IMG/VR virus record: IMGVR_UViG_3300025280_000001
Coordinates: 4,524-68,523 of that record
DNA: 64,000 bases
Direction: 5' to 3' (one strand)
DNA from: a virus
Below are positions 31,545 to 60,052 of the stretch, piece after piece. A program made the translations under genes and the position numbers. The stretch's first letter is position 1; each line of letters begins with the position of its first letter. Below the pieces are notes generated by a model. It did not search any database, was not told the origin of the DNA, and saw nothing but the letters and a program-made list of their open reading frames with translations.

Positions 31545-32104
31545 GAAATATAGACCAGAGACGAGAAGATTCTAATAGACCTATAGATATACCTGATATA
31601 AATCAGAAGGTAGGTATAGAGAATGTAACATTTTCTAGTGCAGACGCACGGTTTCTAGACTCAAATAGAAATAGATATGTCTCTACTATGCCAATGCAGA
31701 TGAAGGGGTTGGAAAATTCTGAAGCCCGTTTAATGTATGATATGTATAAAACTATGAGGGGTACCCTTTTGGAGGGTGGCAAAGCTTGGATGCAATCTGT
31801 GGCAGCAAAGCAAGCCATGGATGACCCAGCGTTGACTGCGAGGTATGAGATGGAGGCTCGACGAGACGCTACCATGAAAGAGTTTTCTGAGATAGATCAA
31901 GCTGAAGTAGAGCCTAGATGGAGGTCATATAATCGTGATACTGCTAGGGGAACAAGATTTGAGAAAGATAAACGAATAATAGCACAAACAAAACTAAAGA
32001 ATAAAACCATTGAAATTGAAGAGAATGAGACCTTATCTGCGGCTGCAAAGACTGCGGCAAAATTGAAACTACATAAGGAGTTTTTAGATGAAGCAGGATA
32101 TTAA
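31541..32104 (+). CDS. hypothetical, probable internal virion protein
   Basis: coupled ORF in the ejection-protein block. Confidence 0.5.
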   Translation: MRNIDQRREDSNRPIDIPDINQKVGIENVTFSSADARFLDSNRNRYVSTMPMQMKGLENSEARLMYDMYKTMRGTLLEGGKAWMQSVAAKQAMDDPALTARYEMEARRDATMKEFSEIDQAEVEPRWRSYNRDTARGTRFEKDKRIIAQTKLKNKTIEIEENETLSAAAKTAAKLKLHKEFLDEAGY

Positions 32105-47100: not shown

Positions 47101-50100
47101 CATGCTTTGAATACTTTGGGTAACTTCCATGCTATAGAGATGATGGAGTATACACTAAGAACGGGTATGAGATTAAATGTACGAGAAAAGGTACAACCTG
47201 ATGGTACTGTTGTGCTTACACCTAGAGAAGCTTTATCAGATCGTATGAGACAGGATATGGGTTTTAGTTTTAGACAAGACAGAAAAAATGAACAGCTTTT
47301 ATATGAAGCCTTTAGATTAATGTTGGGTGAAGATACTCATATGGATTTAGTAGAAGAAACAAGAGAGATAGATGGCAGTAAAACTAAATTCATAAATGCT
47401 CGTACATATATAAATCATAATATAGATATCAAGTTCCATAAAGATGGACCGTCATTCTCTACTAGTGTTCATCGTGCTGCTCTTATATCTCCCTTACAGA
47501 GAGTTATGCAGAGGCTAAACTACTTTGGATCTAATAAATTAAATGGTGACTTAGATGCATTTGTTGAAGCTCGTGAAGAAGATCTACTAATGGTTATAGG
47601 TACAATGATTCGTAAGCCTGAGATTACAGCAGAAGAGATGTCAATAATTCTACCATTTATTATGGAAGAAAAGGTAATAAAGAAAGATGGAGAGTCTACT
47701 CCTGTTCTCGAACACATAAGAGATTTGCAAAGTAGAGCTGAATACTTCCTACAAGAAATTTTAAATGAGCTACGATGGAGAGAACTTTCTAGTACTGTTA
47801 AACACCTACATGAAATCAATACCCCAAAGATTGTTGATAAGCGTACTGGTAGGATTATGAATTCATGGCAATCAAAAACAATACCATTTGATTGGATTGC
47901 TAGATCTTTCTGGGAAAATGTTAGTGAAGAATCATTTAAGGTAGATTTAAATGAAACAGAATTTTATGAACAAGTATATAAACCACATGCAGAAAAGATA
48001 TGGGATAGTGTTAAAGCAACATACTCCAAGACTCATCATAAAGATATATTAGATTTTCTTGAGCGACATAAAGAAGAGCTTATGGAATTAAGTTATAAAA
48101 ATGCTTTAGAAACAATGTTTAATGAAAACCTAGAGGAAGAACCACGAGCAGAATCTGTCTTACTAAAAGAAGATATGGATGCTAGGTGGAGAAAAATACA
48201 AGAGATAGATCCTCAGAAAATTAAACAGCTTAGAACGAAAGCGGCATTACTCAAGAGATGGGAAGGTAGTACCACTATTTATCCACACCTTGTACATGTA
48301 TTAAGTAGTATTGATACGCTTGTTAAAGATAAAGTAATAACCGAACAGGTTGCAGATGCTACCCGCTCAATGTTGGCATGGATGGCTGAAAAAAATCCCC
48401 AGATATTTGTTAACATGAAATTTGAATCAAAAGAAAATATCCCAGGAATATATGTAGCGTTTGCTCAAAAGGTAAATCAAGCTGAATCTGGAGTTACCTT
48501 CGATGGTATATATAGAAACGATCCTGAAGCTGGGGTAAGATATGAACCAGATGAGGACATGAGAACAACAAAGAATTTGTTGTATCTAACTGGACTATCG
48601 AATGAACAAATAGATGCAATGCCTGAATTCCAAGAAGGATGGTTAGATGGTGTGGATGCTATGTCCTATGTTGTAGGATTTGATATGGAAACAACTATTG
48701 CTGCTACTCCAGAGGGTAGAGATATTCTTATGGCATCTATAAAATCTCGTACAGATGGAGATGCAAAAGGTACCTATGAAAAGAATCTATGGACAGCTCA
48801 ACCTATACCAGGATATGCTAATATCCGAAACGAAATAGAAACTATTAAATCAAACCATACACGAATAACTCTGTCTGAAGATGGTACACATTATCACGCT
48901 GTTGGTAACCCTGATAAAAAATATGCCCGTGTTACACAGGCTATTAGGGGAGATGTCGATCCTAAAGAAATGAACCAGAAAGCTATGGATATCGGTACTA
49001 ATATAGATGTAATAGTAAGAGACTTCTTTGCTGGAGAGCTAAAGGGGTATCTGAATTATCATACTGATGGTAACCCACATATAAAAACCGAAGAAATATT
49101 TGATAGTTTTATCGAACAACTAGAAGAACTGAAGCAAAAATTTGACCGTAATGGTGATGAAGTTATAGCTAATAACATAGTATTATATAGTGATGAACTT
49201 GAAATTGCTGGTACTGTCGATCTGTTAGTATACAATGAAGATAAACAAACTATTAGTATCTATGATATGAAAACTAAACGAAGAGGTGCAAAGGCAGGAG
49301 CTGGGCGTAGTGGTTTGTTATATAATGTAGATACAAAATATGAAGCTGGAAGTTATAGAGATAAGTGGACGAATCAATTAAATCTTTATTCCATATTATT
49401 AAACCACACCCACAATATAGATACAGAGACTCTTGGTATTATACCAATAGCTGTTGCTTATGATGGAAGAGTGAAGGCAAGAACTACAGATGAACTTACT
49501 CTATATGAAACAGAGTCTATCAAAGAACTTCCAGAAGTTACATTACTAGCTAGAGATGAAGGTGCTTCAAGAAATACACTAGCACAAGATGGTGGTAGAA
49601 TAACTCAAGAGCAAGCTCAAGATATGTTGAACACTCTTGAGATGCATCAGAATCGTGGCGGTAAGGTAGTTACTCATAACGGTAATGAGTTTGACTTATT
49701 AACACTTGGGCATATAGCAGATAATCCTAGACAAGCCGCTAGGATTGCATTAAGAGGTTATGATATAATGCAAATACTTATGTATGCTGAACCAGAACCT
49801 GGCAGATCACTAGATTGGTTTGGATTAAATGATGCTGGGCTAAATACAATAGGTAGAGGTAAGATAGACGAATCCGGATTAGCTCCACTATATTCACAGC
49901 AAATGCTAGGGCAAGAATTAGAAGACCTTACTGGAGAGGTATCATCTGAAGCAATAGCTAAAATCAAAGAGATGGACCCAGCAATGGCTGGAGATAAATT
50001 ACGCATTTATGTAGAAGACGATGCAAACTTAACCGCAGATCTTCTTGTTGGACTATGGGAAAAGAGTCAATCAGATAATAAAGCTCTTGATATTACTAAC

Positions 50101-53100
50101 GCTAAGGGAGCAACTAGGGTTACTATGCATAATGCACACCCATCTTGGAAGACAGCTTCTGAGATAGACTCTGTTCCAGGATCTGTAAGAAAGTTTAACA
50201 ACAACGGTTTGATTACACCACGCTCTACACATATACCTGGAGATCCTTCACTAGATCCTGCATATCTTATTGGGTTGGATGCTGCAAAGCTTTCAACAAT
50301 GGATACAGCTTCTGCTGTTGAGATTATTTTCCATGAGGTTATGGAGGTTGCTATCTTAAAGTATATGAGAGAAGATACCGCAGCGTTTGATAATCTCGTA
50401 GAAATGTTAGAACGTAAAGAAAATATAAAACTATTGGAGAGAATGATATTAGCTCAATCTGGTGGTAAGAGCGGACCCTCAATTAAAGCAAGAATGGAAT
50501 ACTTTACAAGTTCGCCAACTGAACTTATTGCCGCCTTTGCTTCATACTATGTAGCCGCTAAAGTATTGGGAGATCCAGAAGGAGTTGTAGCTCCAATTAT
50601 AAATGATCTTCATAAGTCTTCAGCTTGGAGTAAGCTAAAGGAATTTATGAACAAAACATTTAGATGGGTTGGAGATATCTATAGAGATATGTCACATGTA
50701 TTTGTTTCATTCATAGATGAGCCAGGTGGTCAGCGTGAGTTTGATGATCTTATGACCCTATTAAATACAGTGTTCGGTCTAGATCAAGAAGGTAATATGC
50801 TATTAGATGCTAATAATGATTTATCTAAACCACGTTATTCAAAAGACTGGAGATATGATACGCCTTATCAACTAGCCGAAGAACCAGCAGAAATATTAGA
50901 GGGTGGGGATAAAGAGTATCTAAAGAAATATAATAAGATACAAACACTCTCGGATGAGTTAGATGTACTGATGGCAAACGGAAAGGGTAGTTCTAAAGAA
51001 TATCGAAACAAGAGTCTATTATCCCGTAAGCTTCATGGAGAAATGGTTCAGTATGGATATGTTAATAATAATCCAAAAACCATGATAGGTACTGAAGGTG
51101 GTGAAGGTGGTCGTCATGTTCAAGGTCTTACTAGAGGAGAACAACTATCGTGGGAACAAATTATACGTAGAGATTGGTGGCTTGGTAGTGGTCCCGATGG
51201 ATTAGCTATTCTGAATTCAGGAAACATATATCTCAAGGCAGCCTTTGCGCATATGACAAGTCAAAAAATGTCGGACTATTTAGGAGGGCACCTATCACAG
51301 GGAGTGGGTGGAACCGCTAGATGGTTTGCTGATTTCTTTGATAGGAGTGGGGTTTCTAAATATGTTATGGATAATGCAAAGAAATTTATTCTTGCATCTT
51401 CTGGTGCAAATGTTACATACAATAGTCCATTTGTAATATCAGTTATACTAGCAAATATGATGGTTGATGGGGCGACTATTACTAGGAGTTCAGTATTACC
51501 ACACTCAAAGGGTATTGTTTCTGTTCAGGCAGCACATAGAAAAGCAACAGGATTTGAAAAGGCTGTTGGTGATACATTCTCACGAGATGTAATTAAACTA
51601 TTTGAAAAAAGCCCATACTATAAGAATGCACTTGAGAGTGGAGAAACTAAGGGAGATCTAGTACAGAATCTTCAAACTGAAATTATTAAGATTCTAGTAG
51701 ATCAAAAAGATAAAAGAGATTATAGCGGTATTGAAAAGTATGATGATGGTATTCAAAAAGGTATAAAGAATCTAGATGCTACATTTAGAAGTTTTGTTAA
51801 TCAGATATTTGGAATGTCCAAAGAGCAGGGTAGAGCTTATATGGAAAAAGATACTGAAATGGTTCCTTGGTTAGTTAAATCTACAAACACTGGAGAAACA
51901 TTACATGCTGCTACCCAAAGAACTAGACCTGCACTTAAGAAATTATTTACGGATAAAATATCTTCAGCAAGTAAGGAATATATTCATCCTGTGTTAGCGT
52001 ATACGGCTGGATTATTACCTAAACCATCAAGATTAAATAAATCATTAGAGATGATGCAAATTATTCATCCCGCATGGTATAGGTTTATTGCAACGAAAGC
52101 TCTGTTAAATTATAGAGCTATGGCTAATGATCCTACAATTAGTTTAAATGCTTTCGTAGCTTTAACAATGAATGCTACTGTTAGAAGTGCATGGAATAAA
52201 GTTACATCTGATGCTATGTCTGCTAAGGGTGATAGACATCTGATGTGGAATGATCTCGATGGTTTTGCTGTTAAGGATCCTAAAGGAAAACCTTATGATA
52301 TGAATGAGGTTAAAGCTAAGATACGAGAGAGATATGATATGTTACTTGATGGTGAAGCTCTTGGTGATGATTTTGGTTTAAACAATGTTATCGACGAATT
52401 GTTTGATCTCAATAATCATCTAGATCCCCATGATAAAGTTAGATCATTTTATGTTGCTTCTAAGACTAGAAGAAATAAAGACTTCTCTAGTGTAATGGAT
52501 TTTATTCTTAATACATTCCTAGAGCGAATACACCACCAAGCTTACTTTGTTTATGATAGTATATTTACTCCTAAAGTATCTGAAGCACTAGCTATACCTG
52601 AAATTAGAAGTTATTTAGAAACTAACCCCGCTATACTAGCTAGAGCTGTATCTCGTTCACAGGGTCATAGAGCTCATGAGATAGATATGTTTAAGGAGAT
52701 TACTAACACAAATCTAGATTTCAGTGAACTACTAAGTCTATTTGGGGAGGTTGCTAGTACTAAAGGTAGTGTCTTTAGGATGACAGATGGTAAAGGTAAA
52801 GACCTTACCGAAAAAGAACAGGCACAATTATCTCATGCTTTAAATGTAACCTTTAAACGTAAGTATGAAGTACTCAGAGGCGTTGCTGCTAGATATGATA
52901 CAAGCGAAGATACCTTCGCAAACAGCTTAGGAGAGGGTTCTAACTGGATTGTTAAGTCTGTATACGGTACTAACCTAGCTATGGCTACTTCTGTAGTGGA
53001 AGGAAGCATGGCTGGCTTATTAAGTACTATAGGATATAACGATGTAAAGGGGCTTATATTCCCGTTTTTAGCCTATTTAAAGCCCCTTATGAGGCAGGAT

Positions 53101-54855
53101 AATGAGGTTGCTAGGGGTATGATATACGGTCTTAGGCTTCTAAAGGGCGATACAACACCAGGCTTGGTTGATCTAGATACTAGTATACACCCCGCTGATA
53201 CCGATCTTTACTTCGCCAAACAGCGTAAGAATTGGTGGGCAAGACGACCCGAAGCAATTACACACCACGCTTCACGAGTTAATGAACAACTTAAGTCAAT
53301 GATTGATTTGCAAATGAGAAAGTTCATGTATGATAAACTTAATAAGGGGCAGTGGAGAGATTTAATTAATCTTATTGCCTCTGGATCTAGAGATGCTAAG
53401 ACAGGTAAGCTACTAGAACACCTTGAGTTTGAAAAAGATCCCGTTGCTTGGAGAAAACGAGAGGAAGCAAGGGTAATGGCAGCTAATAGGAAGCTTCCTG
53501 CCGACCAACAACAGGCAGCAAGAGAAAAACCAGGCTATGACCTAGAAGCATTGCTAGATGATAGCAAAGCTAGCTGGAGGTTATGGAAAAAGCTGGCAAC
53601 GGAGAGTGGATGGGGAGCCAAACAGTGGAGATCGGCTATGATTGCCGCAAAACACGGTCTTATGACCCACGAAGCTCTAGATAATTTTATTATTATGGAA
53701 TCTGAAGCCCGTACTATAGCAAAAGCCGAAGGTTACGGGAAGGAGGGGTTCTTTCACCTCTATAAAATGAGACAGTGGACAGAAATGTTTGCTAAAGAAG
53801 AAGATGCAGCTGGTATGCTGGATGTATATGGTAATACACGTAATGCTTTACAAGAATTTATAGAAATAGTTATGGTAGCCCCTAATATTCTAGACTTGAA
53901 TGTAGTCCCAAGTGCTTTGTGGGCTATACTTCACCAATATAGAACATATCCAATCCTATTTACTGCCCAAAGAATTGTTAGAGACTCATCTAACTATGAT
54001 CCCTTTACCTGGTCTTTAAGAGTTGTATCTAATTTGCTCCTAGATATGCTATATACTCTATTAACAATGGTAGCTGGTGGTTATAGAATACAAGATATGC
54101 AAGATGACTGGGAAAAAGAACCTGCGTCAATGATAGCATTATTAGCAACACGGCTACCCATGTTTGGTTTCTATGGTTCAGCTGCATTTGAGCTAATGAA
54201 TCTTGTTGCATCAGGTAGAAAGGGTGCTGTAATGGCTCCTGTATCCCTTGCAGGGCTTGCAGGATTCCTTGGAAACTTAGTTAATGTTGGTAAATCAGGC
54301 ATAGAAGCAGCTATTCCAGGTGGAAAATTATGGGATACCGATGGTGATACACAAGACCTTATTAACTTATTAAGAGTCATTCCTTATTTAGGTGAGTCTG
54401 TAGTTAGGATGGGACTACATCAAGCACTTCGTAGTAAACAATCCAGAGGTGCTATCACAAAATATGGACAGAATAGAGAGTTTTTCAACTTTGGTCTGAC
54501 ACGAAAGCAAATGATGGATCAACCTAAGTATTACTTAGCAGAGCTTATAGGTGAATTAGCTCCACACCTTATCCCCGAAGATATACAAGACTTGGATGTA
54601 GAAGATTGGGTAGCCATTAAATCAGGAGTAGAGTCCCTGCCCCTTCAGCAGCCCGAAGAAGCAACTGGTGTTGATACTCCAGTCGGAACGACTCCAGATC
54701 CTGACCCCTTCACAGCGGCAACAGAACGCTCTCTACGGGCTCCGAGTACCCTCGGACTGGGCAAGCTAGACAAATTCATCAAAGCTCCTATGCCGACTCC
54801 TAAGGGGATTACGGGAGGAAAGCGAACTTGGGACATACAAGATAAAATCGACTAG
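38158..54855 (+). CDS. giant polyvalent virion protein: gp16-like ejection protein with N4-vRNAP-like RNA polymerase, DEDDy exonuclease and PD-(D/E)XK nuclease domains
   Basis: 5565 aa; DQSWQG, RDALFKPGPLMTLYGGG, VYDAM; FDMET/HNGNEFD/YVEDD; AGTVDLL..IYDMKT..QLNLY; Gly/Ala hydrophobic segment near the N-terminus. Confidence 0.75.
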   Translation: MVRPRQSPADYLPPLPGPSPDDMFHMGSLDRELDAGYYSKIPEAPLEAWGEDTLYSSKTIHESQKPYQVESINLATGDYQIGPLSLLESNRLGMALVHTGGMWGSNAQNTNLVASMMFAGRRELAGTFMALDEDMEKNLKNFISPLAYSNWLKGVNVHLPELDKPSTYIPVRTQHFEPMFIGEAWEQFNPNDLFLEEPHPDYTPDKAWALMWEKNPGFMNRISKLGANEEYFADAKNEHEWMHNANMLIELNYITKSKMWSDDTSWWGKNVSGQLYTFVVSGILNEPDMVGEMLVGLLLTAATAGIGGVALTAKIATYMRKGVKIMDELAELRTFVSKVLRMSRVTNFLPSAIPHTFMTRGGKVALKSRWFNPFANKGRNIFMANAAEGALTGTLAEIGNQRRKINWELQDEYDWEMVAWQGGLESIITPFINPAFVLGMKGLQRGSMRTMQFSSQLMTELTGTDIDLGAKLPDVVKNIVKVWGQPESATDRITLDILGNMAWKNLENMLGSLDADGRKVTGQRLGQILAMLLEDGKLDSLQGLETTLELMIKEATVRKDDGTTYIDHKKMDLPMAVAKLAAIAAKKRGLTADEIGTHEATAFFFIHGERIASERNKKNIKRKDGSEPVGDNKWTAPDIITEALGGTEIDIAVFFDEAMRAEVDEELTLGGLDPKFASKSQVAAAWEKAMVKRGATFAKRASAIIDEQEKLIKEVSELIEAARQALDIREGDASYYMNELVASDPELKRRLVELENFTNDLQALFNQISEIRALRESDLHVKDQTQANSMLDIALTSDRVGGMMARLKLIAKALNIDVKGISKISDMVAILKQRVSQDERFDLEAFKPLAEHLSLELSENLAVITEEQSNLEKVLIDNLFRTIANYHNVYKNSSPHVIDQTIDGVKIDRQFQAIVNSIMRVNDSNYEVLNIDNMTNTGEWNVTESGTKTDTTEPIFLTDKILLKDKKSGDVLSKGEGTIHHVEAHLLDKADPRHKEYVPPPPPPTTGGHPSTPPSKINELREKAGFEPVEVELSGDPESNSFVPLDFAESVTVYQTLQELIAKAEEAGDTKLAKELKRTLSALRFFAENHLDTLPITEAIVDIQTKTLAITKRMNEIDEEFMNNEKFKANYQIEADAQVVAVLSTRIKNSADRGKIKENDVVLDTESQEALSSLEDSYKIKPKKGVSHWKRLAKIRTMLEKKSANFGAKYLKAKEKHNKEITTHSDEIMRLKEKQRSEIHKINMRVIEAHLGEHTGLTLATGREIAEQVATHQLKLARKEADWKFFWEEQSTMTLNDFIFQYLNNNQYVRTRILKKHGTKEEGYTKKQLQEYWDQAIKKEKELIDRLHVGRMMATQRVINNLATEILEEKGVTIDNWNPEHRFTLDTLPDQRLAALAAGDGVTSHIETKLEAVTLLSQFARRIIYMLNTPRWSDETTLKWDKVKKALPPGIKNLRIEIVFAHALTPDSKNKANTEMLEVLELEFDVELLKGALADLITLLDPAIKEQYKYTARMIREAQKDPTDTHSEYSWYAAQRIVTMLWDAMLPAYRDEFLANEIHPDHIGRGYKLVHSKGVTTKWGTESDYIIAVGEEAKNMLLILPEGIRKLALERLGIKETAIIADIDPNTLLTAMASFMHKKTAADLAKYGNGTEDYNSAFTTGRGIIEIVLDRSPGTMRRVVDKSDPEGVVDNFTELNETSKESAKRFKKPEKEKSKVLLPPHTGDINMFGPLEEWGLIRTLEDEVFRNRIKFSAHVEITDSIRNQWADPNRVSNVKEDDMFNVGRRLPFRLTPYINNRLYKGTTLDRQELLEALFTVQLDMPAVVQSFIYDAVIGHRQFYASEAKTTSEIITTGWDTVMPSTNLAWVNILQQLNPELLQAENVDSPLVQLVLEEALRWENQTDPDTGKTRPFNEIINQYNYGDQSWQGAHLFWFLNRKGDEFIAELQRIHDEGEMGWNEDLEDRYITTAVKWIHELLSTDKDSRMDIFRDLFKKVGITEDTDYDTIRTMQEEDGNRVKILRDALFKPGPLMTLYGGGKEAQMVYYKGDGRVDLVRLNEELDVAITLKDIENLQDFMFGGFMWEGTTILHDAMDYSVELKRAVFKLLAVEGTGGARSQAAIESARAGLQKISDDDGGDYGRMLMRASDALVLLRARIADISEFTEIPVKIIEERYATRLRWVRGYLKKKAKANELVDEYDMARLNEFLLGDRLGWRDVENLRAQNLQNSVAHYMNLDHMRIQARMEGYNFDQDDTMGLEELALYFTQMRSHDSKRWYHTVYDAMNVQPVNVSASKIATVYEGIMNTDRFAARVEELANDPDDPKSTSPEFNGMSQAEVFALSEMLQEEGGAPFGMWDIKVNNYHAAKERFGALDERGQFIKDADRKKWKVWAEREIEDALLRDEMLYEASYGPLALTEYEQGGVVTTKGGREFDIFSEMDPERMYGTIAQRWHTADKAAEVEHRQIVNLINKYEAFRSMGTETEAAGRQILTRVSQWSGIPIDLLPTIKELGIRIGTNRYPVESPYTRTVKPLGDETHDVDDFIGIQTAHPGGYAAMRPAIKKVAWDQVGSLALRKFYYDRKINDLETRINPYLDPAIDPSIRPVESLENILPEHNRTDFPILSDKQNILYPESLRGFEAENLLSGRAATVQSIRFKLEEKIDIWARNQGWDIQFLKEHKELYLSLYYMMKLDDMFGYVDSGYRPPEYAEAWNIMRQLETVGRATRANKPGEMFKAKYDIIEKIRKIYRISHGMLTRTRSMIDLHDKGAVLGTVYVPGKGKMTYEEALVSGILGPNALTPALELGLQAADLMVLDADNNLGEYIATTETKEGTQVIQGIDSNMLVTKLPEQFGLDTILIKMLEDTGRLTKEQIAGYEAGSYKSIIDPTGKNGITSYELLGFVQEVFRRNREDRLSNYDLVIFEVREESEGRFTPLNIQVASRRDHTGVQAIVKRDPLNTGITLTPRSYIGPTKRFAMTPESIFHALNTLGNFHAIEMMEYTLRTGMRLNVREKVQPDGTVVLTPREALSDRMRQDMGFSFRQDRKNEQLLYEAFRLMLGEDTHMDLVEETREIDGSKTKFINARTYINHNIDIKFHKDGPSFSTSVHRAALISPLQRVMQRLNYFGSNKLNGDLDAFVEAREEDLLMVIGTMIRKPEITAEEMSIILPFIMEEKVIKKDGESTPVLEHIRDLQSRAEYFLQEILNELRWRELSSTVKHLHEINTPKIVDKRTGRIMNSWQSKTIPFDWIARSFWENVSEESFKVDLNETEFYEQVYKPHAEKIWDSVKATYSKTHHKDILDFLERHKEELMELSYKNALETMFNENLEEEPRAESVLLKEDMDARWRKIQEIDPQKIKQLRTKAALLKRWEGSTTIYPHLVHVLSSIDTLVKDKVITEQVADATRSMLAWMAEKNPQIFVNMKFESKENIPGIYVAFAQKVNQAESGVTFDGIYRNDPEAGVRYEPDEDMRTTKNLLYLTGLSNEQIDAMPEFQEGWLDGVDAMSYVVGFDMETTIAATPEGRDILMASIKSRTDGDAKGTYEKNLWTAQPIPGYANIRNEIETIKSNHTRITLSEDGTHYHAVGNPDKKYARVTQAIRGDVDPKEMNQKAMDIGTNIDVIVRDFFAGELKGYLNYHTDGNPHIKTEEIFDSFIEQLEELKQKFDRNGDEVIANNIVLYSDELEIAGTVDLLVYNEDKQTISIYDMKTKRRGAKAGAGRSGLLYNVDTKYEAGSYRDKWTNQLNLYSILLNHTHNIDTETLGIIPIAVAYDGRVKARTTDELTLYETESIKELPEVTLLARDEGASRNTLAQDGGRITQEQAQDMLNTLEMHQNRGGKVVTHNGNEFDLLTLGHIADNPRQAARIALRGYDIMQILMYAEPEPGRSLDWFGLNDAGLNTIGRGKIDESGLAPLYSQQMLGQELEDLTGEVSSEAIAKIKEMDPAMAGDKLRIYVEDDANLTADLLVGLWEKSQSDNKALDITNAKGATRVTMHNAHPSWKTASEIDSVPGSVRKFNNNGLITPRSTHIPGDPSLDPAYLIGLDAAKLSTMDTASAVEIIFHEVMEVAILKYMREDTAAFDNLVEMLERKENIKLLERMILAQSGGKSGPSIKARMEYFTSSPTELIAAFASYYVAAKVLGDPEGVVAPIINDLHKSSAWSKLKEFMNKTFRWVGDIYRDMSHVFVSFIDEPGGQREFDDLMTLLNTVFGLDQEGNMLLDANNDLSKPRYSKDWRYDTPYQLAEEPAEILEGGDKEYLKKYNKIQTLSDELDVLMANGKGSSKEYRNKSLLSRKLHGEMVQYGYVNNNPKTMIGTEGGEGGRHVQGLTRGEQLSWEQIIRRDWWLGSGPDGLAILNSGNIYLKAAFAHMTSQKMSDYLGGHLSQGVGGTARWFADFFDRSGVSKYVMDNAKKFILASSGANVTYNSPFVISVILANMMVDGATITRSSVLPHSKGIVSVQAAHRKATGFEKAVGDTFSRDVIKLFEKSPYYKNALESGETKGDLVQNLQTEIIKILVDQKDKRDYSGIEKYDDGIQKGIKNLDATFRSFVNQIFGMSKEQGRAYMEKDTEMVPWLVKSTNTGETLHAATQRTRPALKKLFTDKISSASKEYIHPVLAYTAGLLPKPSRLNKSLEMMQIIHPAWYRFIATKALLNYRAMANDPTISLNAFVALTMNATVRSAWNKVTSDAMSAKGDRHLMWNDLDGFAVKDPKGKPYDMNEVKAKIRERYDMLLDGEALGDDFGLNNVIDELFDLNNHLDPHDKVRSFYVASKTRRNKDFSSVMDFILNTFLERIHHQAYFVYDSIFTPKVSEALAIPEIRSYLETNPAILARAVSRSQGHRAHEIDMFKEITNTNLDFSELLSLFGEVASTKGSVFRMTDGKGKDLTEKEQAQLSHALNVTFKRKYEVLRGVAARYDTSEDTFANSLGEGSNWIVKSVYGTNLAMATSVVEGSMAGLLSTIGYNDVKGLIFPFLAYLKPLMRQDNEVARGMIYGLRLLKGDTTPGLVDLDTSIHPADTDLYFAKQRKNWWARRPEAITHHASRVNEQLKSMIDLQMRKFMYDKLNKGQWRDLINLIASGSRDAKTGKLLEHLEFEKDPVAWRKREEARVMAANRKLPADQQQAAREKPGYDLEALLDDSKASWRLWKKLATESGWGAKQWRSAMIAAKHGLMTHEALDNFIIMESEARTIAKAEGYGKEGFFHLYKMRQWTEMFAKEEDAAGMLDVYGNTRNALQEFIEIVMVAPNILDLNVVPSALWAILHQYRTYPILFTAQRIVRDSSNYDPFTWSLRVVSNLLLDMLYTLLTMVAGGYRIQDMQDDWEKEPASMIALLATRLPMFGFYGSAAFELMNLVASGRKGAVMAPVSLAGLAGFLGNLVNVGKSGIEAAIPGGKLWDTDGDTQDLINLLRVIPYLGESVVRMGLHQALRSKQSRGAITKYGQNREFFNFGLTRKQMMDQPKYYLAELIGELAPHLIPEDIQDLDVEDWVAIKSGVESLPLQQPEEATGVDTPVGTTPDPDPFTAATERSLRAPSTLGLGKLDKFIKAPMPTPKGITGGKRTWDIQDKID

Positions 54856-54923
54856 GGGGTCGAGAATTTACGTGACCCCTTAATAGGGTTTGGACTGGGG
54901 CTGACCCCCCCGTACCCCCTATT
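54855..54923. other. inverted repeats at probable genome end/start junction
   Basis: GGGGTC..GACCCC (54856-54879), AATAGGG..CCCTATT (54882-54923), C/G runs; late-to-early gene switch and composition shift. Confidence 0.45.
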
Positions 54924-54962
54924 GGAACATTCCACTTGGCGCTTGCGCCGGAAAGGAGTCTT

Positions 54963-55199
54963 ATGATTAATTTCATTTTGGCTTTCCTACTAGTGTGTGT
55001 TACTACTCTTGTAGTAGTTTCCTTATGTCGTCGACGTGCGCGTCGTCGTGCTACTGATCGATCTTTGCAAAGACTGCTTCACGAGATAGGTTGGGCAGTA
55101 TCGAACGATGAACGTCGTGCTGACAAGTCTGTAGACCCTGTGGTTAAACACAAGGATACAGAGACATCGCCATCTGATGATTCAGAAATATGGTGGTGA
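54963..55199 (+). CDS. small membrane-anchored protein
   Basis: AAGGAG RBS before ATG 54963; N-terminal TM helix followed by RRRARRR. Confidence 0.65.
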   Translation: MINFILAFLLVCVTTLVVVSLCRRRARRRATDRSLQRLLHEIGWAVSNDERRADKSVDPVVKHKDTETSPSDDSEIWW

Positions 55200-55445
55200 T
55201 CAACTCCGGTGCCCTCCCGCAAGGGAGGGATGCCGAGCCCTTTCGGTGGTAGAGCTGCCATGACGAGCAGCTGAAGAGAAAGCAACCACTGCGCCATGGA
55301 TGGTGGGTCGTGGTTGGTGGGCTACGGTTTGAGAAGCCACTAACATTGCGGGGGATGCCGACGTTTGTGCGGCATTCAAGTAGTGGCTTAGGCTAGTAGT
55401 CGAGCTCGTAACTGACCTGGTGAGCACTAGCCAAGACGATAAGGA
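55200..55445 (+). promoter_or_regulatory. structured leader or ncRNA upstream of the divergent RNAP
   Basis: CCCTCCC-GCAA-GGGAGGG; AAGCCACTA/TAGTGGCTT; GGCTAGT/ACTAGCC; AGCTGC/GCAGCT. Confidence 0.55.
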
Positions 55446-55468
55446 CACATCTCAAAGGAGACTCTACT

Positions 55469-57433
55469 ATGAAAAGTCCTTCTTCCCCCGCAAGTGGAGA
55501 CCCCACTTGCAGCCTACTTCTTCCCGAAGTAGCAAGTATTTTAGATACTTACGGCAGCGATAAGTTACTCGCTGCCGCAAAATTGCTGCGAAAGGGCGGT
55601 ATGGGTAATCACGATGTGGTTAACCAGCTCGTCAATGATGTAGCCATTCATGCTGGTCTGACTGGTGAGAGTGGTGGTACAGCCGCAGCAGTTGCAGTAT
55701 TTACCTACTGCAAGGTCATGGCTCGTAAGCATGGTGTTCGTCGCATGACGGACAAAGCACCATTGTTTGAATCTGAAGTGCCAGGTACACGCCGTTTCGT
55801 TGGCTCACGCCGACCTGACTGGTCGCTGGACTCAGCATCTGAAGGTTACGTAGGCGAGAAAGTAGCTGCTGTTCTGAAATGGATATCAGCTAAGGGTTTC
55901 AAGGTTCATCAAGCTTTTGCTGCTGAACTTCGACTACTCCCCCGTGGAGTTCTTTGTACAAAGCCTAACAAAGACTACCGTGACTTAGATACAGGCGAAC
56001 CTCTAAGCCAAGCACAGTCAATAGTGACAGCACTAGATTATGCTGCAGAAGCAGGAGATCGTCTCGTATATTGGATCGTCTTTATGGATTTGGATGGACG
56101 TATTTATTATGTCGCTCCAATTTCACTGCAAGCTGCAGACGGTGTAAAAGGATTAGTATGCCTACCAGAAGCGAAAGCTCTAACCGACCAAGGTTGGGCT
56201 GATCTGTGGTGGAACCACTCAAAGGAGTGGGGAATCCGTGACATGCAAGACTGTCGAGAAATCGTCAGCTCTGGTATCGTTGCGTACCACGCAACTGGTG
56301 GCAAGCTAGACGCATACGCCCATGCGATGCACACTGTACAAGCAGACGATACCAATATGTACCAACTACCAGTTGGTCTCGATGAGAACTTCTCATCTGC
56401 GCTGATAAATGCGGGACTTTCTGGTTGTGAAACCTCAGCTCAGAACTCTGGTCTCTTAAGGTTACCTGACGGTAGCTATACAGAAGGTTGGAGTAGTACG
56501 AGTAAGGAAATGAGTACTGTGGAACTTGTTGATGAGATTCCTGTCGATAAGCGTAAGCCATTCATTAAACCGGGTGGCACCACACTATCTTATAACTCTG
56601 GTACAGAAACCGCAGCTCTAGCTTTCATGTTTGGTAAAAAATGTGAATATGCTTTCAAGGATACCTTGCATATGAAATGGCAGGTCTTTAGGAAAGCAGC
56701 TAAAAGTAAGCCGCTACGTCTCGTAAAAGCCTTGCTCAACAAGAAGAATACGGATGTTAACGCTCACAACTGCATGATGGTAGCCTTAGAATTCTCAGGT
56801 GCCATAGAAGAAGCATTAGATAAAGCTTTGCCAGCAACGCTAGGTAATGCCTCGTTCTTGAATGATGTGTCAGCATCGTGCCAAGAGCAAGGACTGCCGC
56901 GTGAATGGACAACTCCAATGGACTTGACTATTAAGGTCCTTCCCTATCGCCCAACTAAAGAGACCATATCTGAGGGTAAGCGAAAAGGTAAATTGGTTAC
57001 GGTAAGGCTCGCCGCTGGTATTAATTGGACAGAAACCCGTGGTGGTCGCACAAGGTCGACCATGTTACACGTAGCATTTATATTAAACGATGGCGACTTG
57101 TCACTAATGCCTCAATTGATTCAGAGTATTGAAGCTGCTATACTTCAAAAAGCCATGTATGATTTGATTCAGATGGCTATAGATATATGGCTGTCTTCTG
57201 CCCATGACTGTATGTATGCTCATCCAAATGACATTCGTGTTATAGACCGTGTGTTGAGTAAAGCATTTATGTGGGTTATCAAGCGATTCAACTTGGAAAA
57301 AGTCTTCGCCCATGTTGGCGTTGGCGCTGTCTATCCTGATGGCACTCCTGTCGTTAGGTCTAATCGTGATGCTATACTTAATCGAATCTCTAGTGAAATG
57401 AATTTGTGTGGTCTCCCCGCACCAATTAAGTAA
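55469..57433 (+). CDS. divergent, N-terminally short T7-superfamily RNA polymerase
   Basis: DLDGRIYY, PVGLDENFSS, RKPFIKPGGTTLSYNSG, PQLIQSIEAAIL, AHDCMYAHP in canonical order. Confidence 0.85.
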   Translation: MKSPSSPASGDPTCSLLLPEVASILDTYGSDKLLAAAKLLRKGGMGNHDVVNQLVNDVAIHAGLTGESGGTAAAVAVFTYCKVMARKHGVRRMTDKAPLFESEVPGTRRFVGSRRPDWSLDSASEGYVGEKVAAVLKWISAKGFKVHQAFAAELRLLPRGVLCTKPNKDYRDLDTGEPLSQAQSIVTALDYAAEAGDRLVYWIVFMDLDGRIYYVAPISLQAADGVKGLVCLPEAKALTDQGWADLWWNHSKEWGIRDMQDCREIVSSGIVAYHATGGKLDAYAHAMHTVQADDTNMYQLPVGLDENFSSALINAGLSGCETSAQNSGLLRLPDGSYTEGWSSTSKEMSTVELVDEIPVDKRKPFIKPGGTTLSYNSGTETAALAFMFGKKCEYAFKDTLHMKWQVFRKAAKSKPLRLVKALLNKKNTDVNAHNCMMVALEFSGAIEEALDKALPATLGNASFLNDVSASCQEQGLPREWTTPMDLTIKVLPYRPTKETISEGKRKGKLVTVRLAAGINWTETRGGRTRSTMLHVAFILNDGDLSLMPQLIQSIEAAILQKAMYDLIQMAIDIWLSSAHDCMYAHPNDIRVIDRVLSKAFMWVIKRFNLEKVFAHVGVGAVYPDGTPVVRSNRDAILNRISSEMNLCGLPAPIK

Positions 57434-57529
57434 AGGACTCTTATTCTTTCCCTCTCCCTATGCCCAGGTCAGGTAGGTGAGAGGGAGGATGTAATAGCCC
57501 TTGTTGCTATTAGGAAGGAGGTTACTGTT

Positions 57530-57808
57530 ATGGCAGTAAACCCTTACATCGGTACCTTTACTGAACTGTGCTTCAGTAATGGTATAATCTCAATACGGCT
57601 TCGTGTCATGTTCAATGATAATGGAGAGGTGTTGTTCTCAGAGGTGGTTTGTATGGAGTCTTCGAAAGACTGCACTAAAGCCCTGCTTGCTAAGTGGCAT
57701 GCTTCACATCCTGGTGTGAACATATCCTTTGTAGAGTGGGTTAATTTTAGTGACCAACAACCACCTCCTCCTCCAACTACCATGGATTCGCCCATGTTTG
57801 GAGGATAA
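57530..57808 (+). CDS. hypothetical protein
   Basis: AAGGAGG RBS; followed by a terminator. Confidence 0.65.
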   Translation: MAVNPYIGTFTELCFSNGIISIRLRVMFNDNGEVLFSEVVCMESSKDCTKALLAKWHASHPGVNISFVEWVNFSDQQPPPPPTTMDSPMFGG

Positions 57809-57829
57809 CTAAGGGGGATGGGGGAGACC

Positions 57830-57869
57830 AGGGGGCACAGGATCTAGGTCTTGTGCCCCTCTTTTTTTT
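57830..57869 (+). terminator. intrinsic terminator
   Basis: GGGGCACAGGAT..GTCTTGTGCCCC followed by a T8 run. Confidence 0.88.
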
Positions 57870-57991
57870 ATAAGCGACGGTTTATGATGCGTCCGCACTA
57901 CCGTGCAGACTTGGCGAGGGGGCGTAGGTTCGGGAGTGCGGGCTGTAACCGTGCCGAGGTAACCGACGAGGCTTCAATGGAGTACAGAACC

Positions 57992-58222
57992 ATGGCTAAC
58001 GATACGAAAGTAGCGAAAGCGAAAGTCTACAGACCCAAGGGTAAGCCTGCAAGGGCTACCAAGGACCTTACAGCAGCTGAAGCACAGGACCAAGCGGACC
58101 AGTGCGTTAGTATGCAAGGGACCTACCAAGAGTGGAGCATGAAATCATGCGTAAAACTCAAGAATAGGGCAGCAAAGGCTGGCGTAACGCTCGATATCAA
58201 TGACTTGTACAAGGGTGCATGA
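57992..58222 (+). CDS. small basic hypothetical protein
   Basis: GGAG RBS before ATG 57992 (MANDTKVAKAKVYRPKGK...); followed by a terminator. Confidence 0.65.
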   Translation: MANDTKVAKAKVYRPKGKPARATKDLTAAEAQDQADQCVSMQGTYQEWSMKSCVKLKNRAAKAGVTLDINDLYKGA

Positions 58223-58258
58223 AGCAGGGGGTGTCTGTAAGGGCACCCCTGCTTTTTT
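58222..58258 (+). terminator. intrinsic terminator
   Basis: AAGCAGGGGGTGTCT-GTAA-GGGCACCCCTGCTT followed by a T run. Confidence 0.85.
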
Positions 58259-59390
58259 CTTTTCTGCTAACACTGCACGACTCTCGCAAGAGAGTATGCT
58301 ATAGCTCACGCTCTCAAGAGGAGTACAGTGTTAGCAGAAGGGAAGAAAGATATGGACAATCGACACTGTCCAAGAAAAGTGTTGGATGCTGACTTGTGAG
58401 GGCGGAACATCCCTAGATCCACAAGGTTCATATCCTAGGTATGAGCAACAACAGCAGTCACAGATTCAAACCACTGTTCCTTCTTGGGTAGCAGCAGAGC
58501 TACCAAGAAGACAACAAGAATATAGGTCTGGAAAGGACCCAGGTTCCTACCTCGGTAGGGAGAAGACTGTTGGCAACGACAGTCACTAATCCGAATTAAC
58601 CTTTCCTGAGGCGCACCTAGTATAAGACAGGTGTGACAGGTGAGACAGATGGGCACTTCCTGCGGGATGCGGTCTGTCCCTGTCCTCATGCACACATGCG
58701 TGTGTGTGTGAGGATAGACACTTTTGATGGACGTTATGATAGTCCGTTAGCTTTACACCAGCTAAAGGTGTAGTTCAAGAGCACAAGATGCTAACTCTTG
58801 GAAGGCAGAAGTATTACGATCCAATGGATGTGACATGGAGGAAACGCCCAGATATGGGAACACACTCCGTCGTTGAAATAATACACGGTGGTCCCCTCAC
58901 ATCCAACTAATAATCGGGGAGTAGCAGTAAGGGTCTCCGTTCGAGTAACCAAGATATTCGGAAGGACTTTGCATCCGTACGCTTGGATATCTGCTACTTC
59001 CCTTTAACTAATGCTCGACGGAGCAGTTCGTGGCTGAATAATCTCTTCAGTAAGGAGATAAGGCACACAGTAGACCGTGGTGGTCTGACCAATGCACATA
59101 ATGTGTGAGGTCATCCTCGTAACTGAGGATAAGGTGATAGATGGTTGTAACAAATAATATTGCTCCTCTGTCTTGTAGGTAATAAAAGAATCCTACCGAA
59201 CACAATATACTTTCTGCTACCTGATCAGTAGTGGGACTGGGATAATGCCCCAGTGCAGATACGTCCAAACTGCGACAACAAAGCGGACGCAATATACAGA
59301 GTTTTTGCTGTGCTGTGACCTCTCTACAAAAGGTGAGATGCTCCGGCTTAGTCCACCATTGTTTAATAGACCATAAACGGACTACAAACT
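58255..59390 (+). ncRNA. candidate large structured non-coding RNA (family not recognised)
   Basis: no credible ORF; roughly 20 back-to-back stems, GNRA loops, + strand G-T wobbles, long-range pairings. Confidence 0.5.
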
Positions 59391-59405
59391 AACAGGAGGT
59401 ATCTT

Positions 59406-59666
59406 ATGACGATGCACACAAGAGGACTGGAATCAGCACCCCCAACAGAGATTATTCAACTAATTGATGGGGAATATGTTAAGAGAGCCCCAACCAAAGA
59501 GGAACTGGCACGTATGCCTGTACTTCAGATGGTAACAGGATTTACGTGTGACCACTGTGGCAGCACAGACGTAGAAGAAACAGGGCTACATAAGAGTAGC
59601 TATGGTCAATGGATAGTAACTAAGTGTGGTAACTGTGATGTTACCGTGATGTACAAGACAGAATAA
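59406..59666 (+). CDS. small Zn-ribbon protein
   Basis: AGGAGG RBS; CDHC...CGNC. Confidence 0.7.
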   Translation: MTMHTRGLESAPPTEIIQLIDGEYVKRAPTKEELARMPVLQMVTGFTCDHCGSTDVEETGLHKSSYGQWIVTKCGNCDVTVMYKTE

Positions 59667-59677
59667 GGAAACAACAA

Positions 59678-60052
59678 ATGGGAATACAATATCCATATGT
59701 AGAGATTGCTGGTGAACCAGAGGTCAGAGGCAAATGCAGAGTCAACCTATGGGCAGGCAATGGTGATTATACTACAGTATACAAGGGTTTAATAAACCAA
59801 GAACAACTAAGGGATACGCTGATGCCTATCCTAAAGCAGTACCCTGCCATTAGAGTGAGGGTAACGGACATTAAAGCTAGTGACAAAGACTATCTCCATA
59901 TCTTTAGGATACGAGATACTCGTGAGGCTGTCACTCCGATACGATCGTTCGTAAGAACACACAATGAGGTACCTAATCCATTCAGAAATCGTAAGCGATA
60001 CCAGATGGTGAACCCAAATGCAACGGTATCCTTTGAGTCCCTTGACCTATAG
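59678..60052 (+). CDS. hypothetical early protein
   Basis: AAGGA RBS, 124 aa. Confidence 0.65.
   Translation: MGIQYPYVEIAGEPEVRGKCRVNLWAGNGDYTTVYKGLINQEQLRDTLMPILKQYPAIRVRVTDIKASDKDYLHIFRIRDTREAVTPIRSFVRTHNEVPNPFRNRKRYQMVNPNATVSFESLDL

Follow-up and report, generated by a model that had tools for sequence, protein, structure and literature searches.

Can an RNA polymerase (RNAP) that lacks most of the T7 promoter-binding domain still transcribe a phage genome, and what help would it need to do so? The question arises at a locus of a marine podovirus genome of 68.5 kb, of which 64,000 nucleotides (the window) were analysed. Single-subunit RNAPs hold a central place as tools and as models of transcription; to our knowledge, the only well-studied minimal one is the heterodimeric N4 RNAPII. 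The enzyme encoded here is a single-chain minimal RNAP of N4 RNAPII size that sits on a separate deep branch; its fixed association, in an otherwise T7-like genome, with a 5565-residue protein carrying motifs like those of the N4 virion RNAP (vRNAP) is relevant to the relationship between the transcription strategies of T7 and N4. A full-text literature search of limited coverage, confined to main texts, returned no such phage; an earlier description is possible. The locus comprises the following features, each given with the evidence on which it was called.

38158..54855, + strand: giant protein, 5565 aa, candidate for a polymerase delivered with the virion; residues ~3600-3760 are exonuclease-like (ORF, two homologs, phrog_298, context)
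43504..44970, + strand: segment of the giant protein (residues 1783-2271) with ordered T7/N4-like motifs (motif invariance, side-by-side comparison with T7 and N4 vRNAP, shuffles)
54936..55199, + strand: predicted membrane protein of small size, encoded between the genes for the giant and the RNAP (hydrophobic N-terminus; 59% identity over 51 aa in locus L003)
55200..55468, + strand: GC-rich, weakly structured 5' leader of the RNAP gene (GC content, shuffle folding)
55469..57433, + strand: short single-subunit (T7-fold) RNAP, P0001, 654 aa (ORF, residues, sequence/profile homology, fold, invariant residues, dN/dS, tree)
57530..57808, + strand: p92, conserved protein of 92 aa whose C-terminal tail is acidic/aromatic; cofactor candidate for the RNAP (tblastn, alignment A6, dN/dS)
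57831..57870, + strand: terminator-like hairpin (13-bp stem) and T-run 3' of p92
57992..58222, + strand: p76, conserved protein of 76 aa whose N-terminus is basic; may be a cofactor that binds nucleic acid (conservation, alignment A7)
58227..58260, + strand: terminator-like hairpin (10-bp stem) and T-run 3' of p76
59012..59206, + strand: manA RNA motif (RF01745; 78.6 bits against a gathering score of 55.2)
59678..60052, + strand: conserved protein of 124 aa that closes the module (93% identity in L002; 38% in L006 and L007)

The short polymerase and its family

The RNAP gene is an ATG-start ORF, and its product carries each residue at the position that a first-pass annotation of this DNA had named (D207 in DLDGR, D305, K367, Y375 and D580). 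DxxGR occurs only once in the protein (DLDGR, 207-211) and is joined by motif A (D305), motif B (K363/K367/Y375) and motif C (H579-D580); DLDGR aligns to T7 D421-R425 (DWRGR in the T7 sequence that we fetched), and D305 and H579-D580 align to T7 motifs A and C (D537 and H811-D812). D207, R211, D305, K367, Y375, H579 and D580 are invariant in all 15 sequences of the alignment that includes P0013, an ordinary Pfam RNA_pol member (A1), and in all 14 family members once P0013 is removed (A5), with identities of 18-26% to the distant members. Because they are invariant in homologs, these residues are not a chance pattern, and the view that the catalytic residues are intact is borne out; degeneration of the catalytic Asp residues in homologs, which the annotation had named as evidence of a decaying gene, is seen in none of the 14.

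Motif B had been read as atypical (R-x4-KPG-x5-Y) and as a signature of ancestry shared with the giant protein, and neither reading held up. The stretch in the short RNAP (RKPFIKPGGTTLSY, beginning at residue 362) keeps the canonical K-x7-Y spacing of T7 (R627-x3-K631-x7-Y639), as do all 15 aligned sequences, and position K-4, equivalent to T7 R627, is K363 here and K or R in 15/15. Judged from its sequence, the motif is unusual only in the Arg at -5 and the 'PG', and KPG is found in just two of the 14 members (P0001 itself and P0002; P0003 has KPP at this position). The corresponding stretch of the giant protein (RDALFKPGPLMTLY) begins at residue 2020 of its 5565-aa ORF. Since KPG is not family-wide, it does not mark an ancestry common to the two proteins, and no similarity between them was detectable by BLASTP (best E 0.6), phmmer (none) or profile-profile comparison (E 0.13).

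To which polymerases, then, is the short RNAP related? It matches phrog_414 'RNA polymerase' (9e-12), and the A1 profile matches human (2.2e-18) and yeast (4.8e-17) mitochondrial RNAPs (mtRNAPs), T7 RNAP (~1e-13) and N4 RNAP2 (6dt7_B; 5.3e-07); hhalign pairs A1 with T7 over residues 194-610 (T7 408-842; probability 96%, E 2e-09). Without P0013 this support is weaker: the A5 profile matches mtRNAP at 4.9e-07 and T7 at 0.02, and hhalign with T7 covers residues 196-352 only (probability 12.6%, E 0.0023). Against the Pfam RNA_pol family (PF00940) the RNAP scores 12.8 bits, under the gathering cut-off of 22, which is reached by none of the 14 A5 members (top, P0003 at 19.4 bits).

The RNAP matches only 12 other representative clusters in a set of 1.84 billion protein representatives; tblastn against 50,697 deposited phage records gave no match, and IMG/VR searches with P0001, P0004, P0009, A3, A8 and A9 gave no further genomic contexts of the family. 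In a tree that is only indicative, coming from a quick search and having long branches, a branch with SH-aLRT 99 sets the 14 members apart, and N4 gp16 joins the canonical T7-like RNAPs apart from them (SH-aLRT 93); clustering of the short RNAP with full-length T7-like enzymes, the other outcome that the annotation had listed against its own reading, is not what the tree shows. The RNAP belongs to a small, deeply divergent, previously undescribed clade known from uncultured phages only. Its ORF is single and intact in 6/6 related loci, and dN/dS against an 80%-identical ortholog is ~0.31 (0.128/0.414).

The AlphaFold2 model of the RNAP (pLDDT 86.8, pTM 0.87), for which the alignment used was A1 with the ordinary RNAP P0013 in it, has T7 RNAP as its best Foldseek match (8.5e-16), followed by mtRNAPs. 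VIA-align superimposes the model on T7 RNAP 8dh5_M with Z 26.2 (rmsd 4.3; 472 residues aligned; model 78-647, T7 251-882), on the T7 initiation complex 3e2e_A with Z 23.4 (model 30-648, T7 191-883), on yeast mtRNAP with Z 25.3, on N4 mini-vRNAP with Z 17.9 and on N4 RNAPII gp16 with Z 16.9 (312/404 residues aligned); aligned identity to T7 RNAP is 12-14% in these structure comparisons. A DNA polymerase identity was considered and rejected: Pol I matches fall ~10 Z units under those of RNAPs in VIA-align (best Z 16.4), the protein has the DxxGR and His-Asp motifs specific to RNAPs, and a separate DNA polymerase (DNAP) is encoded by the phage. On the combined evidence of sequence and model, the short RNAP is a genuine single-subunit RNAP of the T7/mitochondrial/N4 fold with a complete catalytic core, and its predicted activity as an RNAP is close to certain.

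The truncation is real as well. The much-reduced N-terminal region reported in the first pass is confirmed by the hhalign pairing, in which ~190 residues precede the palm as against ~407 in T7, and by the structural alignment, which begins at T7 191/196: nothing in the protein corresponds to T7 residues 1 to ~190, where the AT-rich recognition loop and the bulk of the promoter-binding domain reside, and the thumb is short. A specificity-loop-like β hairpin (about residues 497-541) matches the position of the T7 specificity loop. The aromatic C-terminal foot had been called absent; model residues 647/648 align with T7 882/883, so the foot is modified instead, and the claim stands to the extent that FAFA itself is not present, the protein ending in NLCGLPAPIK, with a Cys (C647) and a six-residue extension, as against DFAFA in T7. 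At the C647 position, most relatives in the 15-sequence alignment have F or W (e.g., PFG, LFG, VWG, PWG).

The giant protein upstream

The giant protein matches the phrog_298 exonuclease (7.8e-10) and has two homologs besides itself. In L004 and L007, the two loci whose upstream flank exceeds 1 kb, the short RNAP is preceded by the C-terminus of the giant; the only relative found in IMG/VR (L012) does not differ from P0018, and this 55%-complete record stops before the expected short-RNAP site. Is this protein a polymerase too? Four RNAP motifs follow one another in the correct order and are invariant in three distinct homologs: NVGR (1781-1784), GDQSWQGAH (D1922), R2020-x4-K2025-x7-Y2033-GGG and SHDSK (H2269, D2270). 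Their spacings are 138/103/245, compared with 135/111/281 in N4 vRNAP and 112/94/181 in T7, and the composite four-motif pattern, which was picked after the motifs had been seen, appears in 7/20000 shuffles. The motif region has no Pfam match at E up to 10, and its only PHROGs match is phrog_2020 (unknown function; E 0.12-0.17); tblastn of the region against phages gave no match, and no shorter homologs were found. By hhalign, E values for the giant against T7, N4 mini-vRNAP and A5 are 0.23, 0.23 and 0.13, none significant, and the predicted fold of residues 1350-2500 is unusable (pLDDT 36.9). Taken with the motifs and their order, the giant is probably the partner virion RNAP.

A proposed two-polymerase programme and its rivals

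The giant, the short RNAP, p92, a terminator, p76, a second terminator and the manA RNA form a module that recurs in distant relatives. p92 has tblastn matches in 5/6 loci (35-79% identity) and a dN/dS of ~0.35; no known family was found for it, and the ESM Atlas offered nothing informative on either p92 or p76. p76 is found downstream, by tblastn, also in 5/6 loci; a longer TTG-start ORF from 57851 is probably not real because it overlaps the terminator hairpin. The manA RNA occupies the same relative position in 3/6 loci (L002, L006 and L007). Phmmer and BLASTP comparisons of the window's small proteins with N4 gp1-gp16, gp1/gp2 included, showed no similarity; p92 and p76 may be analogous cofactors of unrelated sequence. 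Upstream, GC is 0.52 across 54856-55468, and the RNAP leader folds with z = -2.17 (4/200 shuffles as stable).

Elsewhere the phage is T7-like in its replication, portal, capsid, tail-tube and terminase genes (its portal is 31-32% identical to those of a T7-like pelagiphage and LUZ100), and it encodes a primase/helicase (phrog_239, 4.6e-154) along with its DNAP; a tRNA search found none. Searches of the intergenic DNA for a repeated promoter consensus (direct repeats; 11-mers with one mismatch) found none and returned only the Shine-Dalgarno-like AAGGAG. One candidate phage promoter, TAGTTTATAAT, has 11 matches against 4.3 expected, yet these lie on both strands and are mostly intragenic, and it was rejected.

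How might these parts work together? The explanation that we favour, and consider reasonably likely as a whole, is that an active minimal RNAP serves in an N4-style two-polymerase programme: (i) the giant protein would be packaged in the virion, ejected and used to transcribe the first genes, that of the short RNAP among them; (ii) transcription of the other phage genes would then fall to the short RNAP; (iii) like N4 RNAPII, it would be unable to open duplex promoters unaided; and (iv) it would be recruited or helped by p92, whose tail is acidic/aromatic, by the basic p76, or by both, which nominates the two as candidate promoter-opening or recruitment factors. That the short RNAP is the non-virion transcriptase of this phage and depends on a cofactor is, in our judgement, slightly favoured. 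For the suggested need for a cofactor or a pre-melted template, N4 RNAPII is a direct precedent: according to PMC4496689, this enzyme of 673 aa in total is truncated in its N-terminal domain and thumb, is active on ssDNA only and is recruited by ssDNA-binding gp2. More tentatively, and with some doubt, we suggest that a lineage of marine podoviruses, T7-like in replication and structural genes, runs its N4-style programme with parts that look unrelated: an ejected 5565-aa protein, cryptically a T7-fold polymerase in its central segment, and a single-chain minimal RNAP of a new deep clade that would work only with p92 and/or p76 as new cofactors, all in one conserved, manA-linked module. If true, the strategy of a virion RNAP plus a minimal RNAP would be older or more widespread than Schitoviridae, and a new RNAP/cofactor system of ~650 aa would be available for study.

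The T7-like genes of this phage also invite a T7-style account, in which the short enzyme is the sole phage polymerase, its gene transcribed early by host RNAP, and uses the specificity-loop-like hairpin to read, with no cofactors, duplex promoters of its own; the giant would then be no more than a virion protein, ejected or internal, that carries nuclease domains. The hairpin is indeed kept where T7 has its specificity loop, and neither profiles nor a fold support the giant as a polymerase; however, σ70-like sites around the RNAP gene are not enriched (7 against 6.3 expected), no repeated phage promoter was detected, nothing corresponds to the N-terminal elements by which T7 RNAP binds and melts promoters, and chance is an unlikely source of the four motifs of the giant, with their order and invariance. 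We regard this account as unlikely, though it is the strongest of the rivals. Could the enzyme instead make primers or R-loops for DNA synthesis and not be the main transcriptase? T7 RNAP and mtRNAP act in primer/R-loop formation at replication origins, mtRNAP primes replication, a minimal architecture devoid of promoter-binding elements would suit such a role, and the first-pass annotation had proposed one; but the phage already encodes a primase/helicase, and the gene lies among small early-type genes and terminators, outside the replication block, which makes this role improbable. The remaining possibility, that the enzyme is what is left of a T7-like RNAP, in decay or catalytically dead, draws on the strong divergence, the sub-threshold Pfam score and the replacement of the C-terminal aromatic by Cys and a six-residue extension, and is set against invariant catalytic residues in 14/14 members, the low dN/dS, ORFs intact in every related locus and a confident full-length fold; we give it very little weight.

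Comparison with known polymerases

Set beside T7 RNAP (PF00940), the short RNAP shares the right-hand fold, the DxxGR, A, B and C motifs, the K-x7-Y spacing and a hairpin at the specificity-loop position; it differs in length (654 vs 883 aa), in having nothing to match T7 residues 1 to ~190 and in an LCG followed by a six-residue tail where T7 has FAFA. Mitochondrial RNAPs (human POLRMT, yeast Rpo41) give the best profile matches (with A1 and A5 alike) and similar folds (Z 23-25), and these enzymes rely on accessory factors for promoter melting; unlike the short RNAP, they are cellular, ~1100-1350 aa long, and have large N-terminal extensions.

The giant protein resembles N4 vRNAP gp50 (mini-vRNAP, PDB 2po4/3c3l) in the central position of its putative polymerase segment, in motif order and spacing, and in a motif B of the form K-x-P...Y-G-[SG]-G. 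According to PMC10654107, reference N4-like vRNAPs of Schitoviridae span 2,842 to 3,820 aa and are filtered by ExDGxxxG; the giant falls outside this description, with 5565 aa and YGDQSWQG as its motif A, and no profile similarity to N4 mini-vRNAP was found. By this criterion the genome would not be placed in Schitoviridae, and its portal resembles those of the T7-like pelagiphage and LUZ100.

With N4 RNAPII (gp15 + gp16; PDB 6dt7) the differences are that the short RNAP is a single chain here and in 6/6 related loci, that it has no specific sequence affinity to either subunit (hhalign of A1 with gp16, E 1.4e-4, probability 53%; with gp15, E 0.054), and that the phage around it has T7-like structural and replication genes. 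The likenesses are those of architecture: 654 vs 673 aa, truncation of the N-terminal domain and thumb (for N4, PMC4496689), DxxGR inside the first ~210-270 residues of both, and a podovirus that also encodes a giant protein, here one with N4-vRNAP-like motifs. By analogy, the closest counterpart of the short RNAP is the minimal, cofactor-dependent N4 RNAPII.

A minimal single-subunit polymerase

Sequence comparisons and a structural model indicate that the 654-aa ORF at 55469-57433 (+) almost certainly encodes a functional single-subunit RNAP, here called the short RNAP. D207 (in DLDGR), D305, K367, Y375 and D580 lie where the first-pass annotation placed them, and the T7 values it relied on (R425, D537, K631, Y639, D812, C-terminal DFAFA) agree with the fetched T7 sequence. 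Taken alone, the protein falls short of the Pfam RNA_pol cut-off (12.8 bits vs 22), and phmmer finds no match to it in the PDB; it matches phrog_414 "RNA polymerase" at 9e-12. Searched exhaustively with phmmer (E <= 0.001), 1.84 billion representatives yielded 13 proteins of 498-746 aa, the short RNAP itself included; a word-indexed search added two close relatives (80% and 55% identity). Pfam recognizes none of the relatives except P0013, one of the 13 and an ordinary RNA_pol protein (1.2e-54); the best of the rest, P0003, reaches 19.4 bits. M1, D207, R211, D305, K367, Y375, P548, H579 and D580 are invariant in the 15-sequence alignment, and leaving out P0013 adds G106, W341, T371 and E555; the T7 DxxGR and motif A, B and C residues are all among these positions, though distant members are only 18-26% identical. 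The claim that the catalytic residues D305, K367, Y375 and D580 are intact thus holds with or without P0013.

Profile and fold comparisons point the same way. The 15-sequence profile matches human mtRNAP (2.2e-18), yeast mtRNAP (4.8e-17), T7 RNAP (~1e-13) and N4 RNAP2 (5.3e-07); without P0013 it is weaker (mtRNAP 4.9e-07, T7 0.02). Likewise, hhalign pairs residues 194-610 with T7 408-842 when P0013 is included (probability 96%, E 2e-09), and the N-terminal palm only when it is removed (12.6%, E 0.0023). An AlphaFold2 model built from the same 15 sequences, P0013 among them, with no templates, is confident (pLDDT 86.8, pTM 0.87), and Foldseek ranks T7 RNAP first (8.5e-16), followed by mitochondrial RNAPs. 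VIA-align superimposes model residues 78-647 on T7 251-882 (Z 26.2, rmsd 4.3 A, 472 aligned) and 30-648 on residues 191-883 of the T7 initiation complex (Z 23.4); yeast mtRNAP gives Z 25.3, N4 mini-vRNAP Z 17.9, N4 RNAPII gp16 Z 16.9 (312/404 residues aligned) and the first DNA polymerase I in the ranking Z 16.4. The possibility that the gene is a relic was rejected on the invariant catalytic residues, the confident fold and a dN/dS of 0.128/0.414 in a nucleotide comparison with the 80% ortholog.

Which parts of a T7-type enzyme has this protein dispensed with? Some 190 residues precede the DxxGR-bearing palm, versus ~407 in T7 (hhalign), bearing out the proposal that much of the N-terminal promoter-binding domain is missing. 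The structural alignment starts no earlier than T7 residue 191; the short RNAP therefore appears to have no counterpart of the preceding region, to which the AT-rich recognition loop of T7 and most of its promoter-binding domain belong. The helix before the palm (residues 181-195) is short in the model, consistent with a reduced thumb, and a hairpin-containing segment at ~497-541 (strands 511-515 and 531-539, with a poorly modelled tip) aligns with the T7 specificity-loop segment. The aromatic foot had been called absent; judging from model and sequence, it is altered, not deleted, because residues 647/648 align structurally with T7 882/883 and the position of C647, in a C-terminus that reads L-C-G then LPAPIK, is F or W in most relatives (in two, the chain stops one residue past the Gly).

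A conserved module in a T7-type genome

The 68,523-bp record, of which the window covers bases 4524-68523, has direct terminal repeats and an estimated completeness of 100%, and every sizeable ORF of the window lies on the + strand. A PHROG scan identifies the gene set as T7-type, with replication-type genes (Gp2.5-like SSB, RusA, primase/helicase at 4.6e-154, DNA polymerase at 4.2e-123, exonuclease, ribonucleotide reductase) and structural genes (head-tail connector at 3.1e-106, major head protein, two tail-tube proteins, large terminase). Counterparts of the connector in pelagiphages, rhizobiophages and Pseudomonas phage LUZ100 share only 31-32% identity with it. The terminase is followed by several large unannotated proteins, a 5565-aa ORF (38158-54855, +; the giant protein) and the short RNAP. 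One protein of the post-terminase block (689 aa, 32088-34157, +) matches a LysM domain (1.5e-05) and may thus be a virion or ejection protein that binds peptidoglycan.

The short RNAP lies in a GC-rich island (54856-60052; 0.43-0.52 vs 0.37-0.39 elsewhere, the giant gene included) with p92 and p76, two small proteins named for their lengths, and a non-coding stretch. The GC-rich leader of the RNAP gene (55200-55468, +) folds slightly better than its shuffles (z -2.17, with 4/200 shuffles doing as well), weak evidence of structure. Features downstream are:

57530-57808, +: p92
57831-57860, +: strong terminator-like hairpin (13-bp stem) and T-run directly after p92
57992-58222, +: p76
58227-58250, +: strong terminator-like hairpin (10-bp stem) and T-run directly after p76
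59012-59206, +: manA RNA (RF01745), 78.6 bits, gathering score 55.2
59678-60052, +: p124, a 124-aa protein
manA RNA in metagenome loci, 68.6-69.3 bits: L002 3563-3758; L006 4746-4941; L007 7907-8102

For p76, the ATG start at 57992 is more likely than the TTG-start ORF 57851-58222, because the p92 terminator hairpin overlaps the latter.

A degenerate-pattern scan of metagenome contigs recovered six loci with RNAP relatives 80, 55, 27, 25, 24 and 24% identical. In both loci with >1 kb of upstream sequence, the ORF preceding the RNAP gene encodes the C-terminal end of a homolog of the giant protein (L007, 30% over 945 aa; L004, 38% over 173 aa). On the downstream side, 5/6 loci give tblastn matches to p92 and p76, and L004 has size- and pattern-matched proteins at their positions that are only 22% identical in alignments; p124 occurs in three loci. 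Both p92 and p76 are under purifying selection and match no family searched. Between the window and L007, p92 is better conserved (42%) than the RNAP (24%). Its C-terminus carries a conserved acidic/aromatic tail (DDWF, DDFR, SDFF, MFGG), resembling the tails with which SSBs recruit other proteins; the p76 N-terminus is basic.

The manA RNA, which sits in a putative phage early region, is kept downstream even where the RNAP is only 24% identical; in the other three loci the sequence ends too early or none is seen. It falls within ~1.2 kb (58223-59405) that has no convincing + strand ORF except a weak 67-aa frame (58386-58589); outside manA this stretch gives only sub-threshold Rfam matches and may hold further structured RNA.

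The giant protein and the order of transcription

Sequence and model together show a catalytically intact enzyme with a predicted minimal T7 fold, genetically coupled to the giant protein and two small conserved proteins. The giant protein itself probably contains a polymerase, to judge from four motifs:

residues 1779-1796: M-F-N-V-G-R-R...PYINN
D1922: GDQSWQGAH
K2025 and Y2033: R-x4-K-PGPLMTL-Y-GGGKE
H2269-D2270: SHDSK

These are in the right order, invariant across three distinct homologs (38% identical over the region) and, side by side, look like those of T7 and N4 vRNAP. Their spacings are 138/103/245, versus 135/111/281 in N4 vRNAP and 112/94/181 in T7. A composite regular expression matches 7/20,000 residue shuffles of the protein, a rough guide since the pattern was picked after seeing the motifs.

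Kinship between the two proteins had been proposed from an atypical motif B. Both strings are where they were quoted (residues 362 and 2020), yet the motif is not atypical in its spacing: K-x7-Y is common to T7, N4 vRNAP, the short RNAP and the giant protein, and the position four before the K (R627 in T7) is K or R in 15/15 short-family sequences (K363 here, with R362 one residue earlier). Nor does it argue for shared ancestry. "KPG" occurs only in P0001 (the short RNAP) and its relative P0002, with KPP in P0003 and P0004; by sequence it is therefore a local trait of that sub-branch rather than a mark of common descent with the giant protein. BLASTP and phmmer detect no similarity between the two proteins, and the best local hhalign alignment sets motif B on motif B at E 0.13.

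PHROGs and Pfam scans of the giant protein give no RNAP match, an AlphaFold model of the motif region from a three-sequence alignment failed (pLDDT 36.9), and no further homologs appear in the collections searched. In the main rival scheme, which is T7-style and strikes us as rather unlikely, host RNAP makes the short enzyme, which works unaided, and the giant protein has only a structural role. The surroundings of the short RNAP gene show no enrichment of Sigma-70-like sites (7 vs 6.3 expected), and no repeated phage promoter was found. We tentatively favor a relay of polymerases. As the record may start and stop at arbitrary points, its genes can be lined up in a single series, from the giant gene through the short RNAP and small early-type genes to replication and structural genes. 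By analogy with N4, in which early RNAs are made by the virion RNAP (available text of PMC4496689), the giant protein would be ejected and transcribe the first genes, the short RNAP among them; with help from p92 and/or p76, the latter would then take over transcription of the remaining genes.

Relation to known systems

By analogy, N4 RNAPII is the functionally closest system: in the available text of PMC4496689, it has 673 aa, a truncated N-terminal domain and thumb, and activity on ssDNA only, unless recruited by the ssDNA-binding gp2. The short RNAP is nevertheless no member of the N4 RNAPII group; it consists of one chain, where gp15/gp16 form a heterodimer, and shows no specific affinity for either subunit. 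A quick maximum-likelihood tree separates the 14 family members by one branch (SH-aLRT 99, length 1.22) from N4 gp16, P0013 and five canonical phage RNAPs; the family thus does not cluster with canonical phage RNAPs, in a tree that is indicative only (22 rows, 628 columns, long branches, arbitrary root on N4 mini-vRNAP). The giant protein, at 5565 aa, also sets this phage apart from N4-like phages as defined in the available part of PMC10654107 (vRNAP of 2,842-3,820 aa with an ExDGxxxG motif). It is, by sequence, multi-domain, because an exonuclease-like segment at ~aa 3600-3760 matches phrog_298 (7.8e-10); such nuclease-type modules are not described for N4 vRNAP.

Searches of 50,697 phage records with the short RNAP and the giant motif region (tblastn), and with the 14 kb around the short RNAP (megablast), brought up no match. 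A full-text literature search returned N4 papers and no account of such an arrangement, although supplements, which lay outside the search, may list such contigs. What appears new relative to these systems is a deep clade of minimal single-subunit RNAP within an apparently undescribed podovirus lineage.
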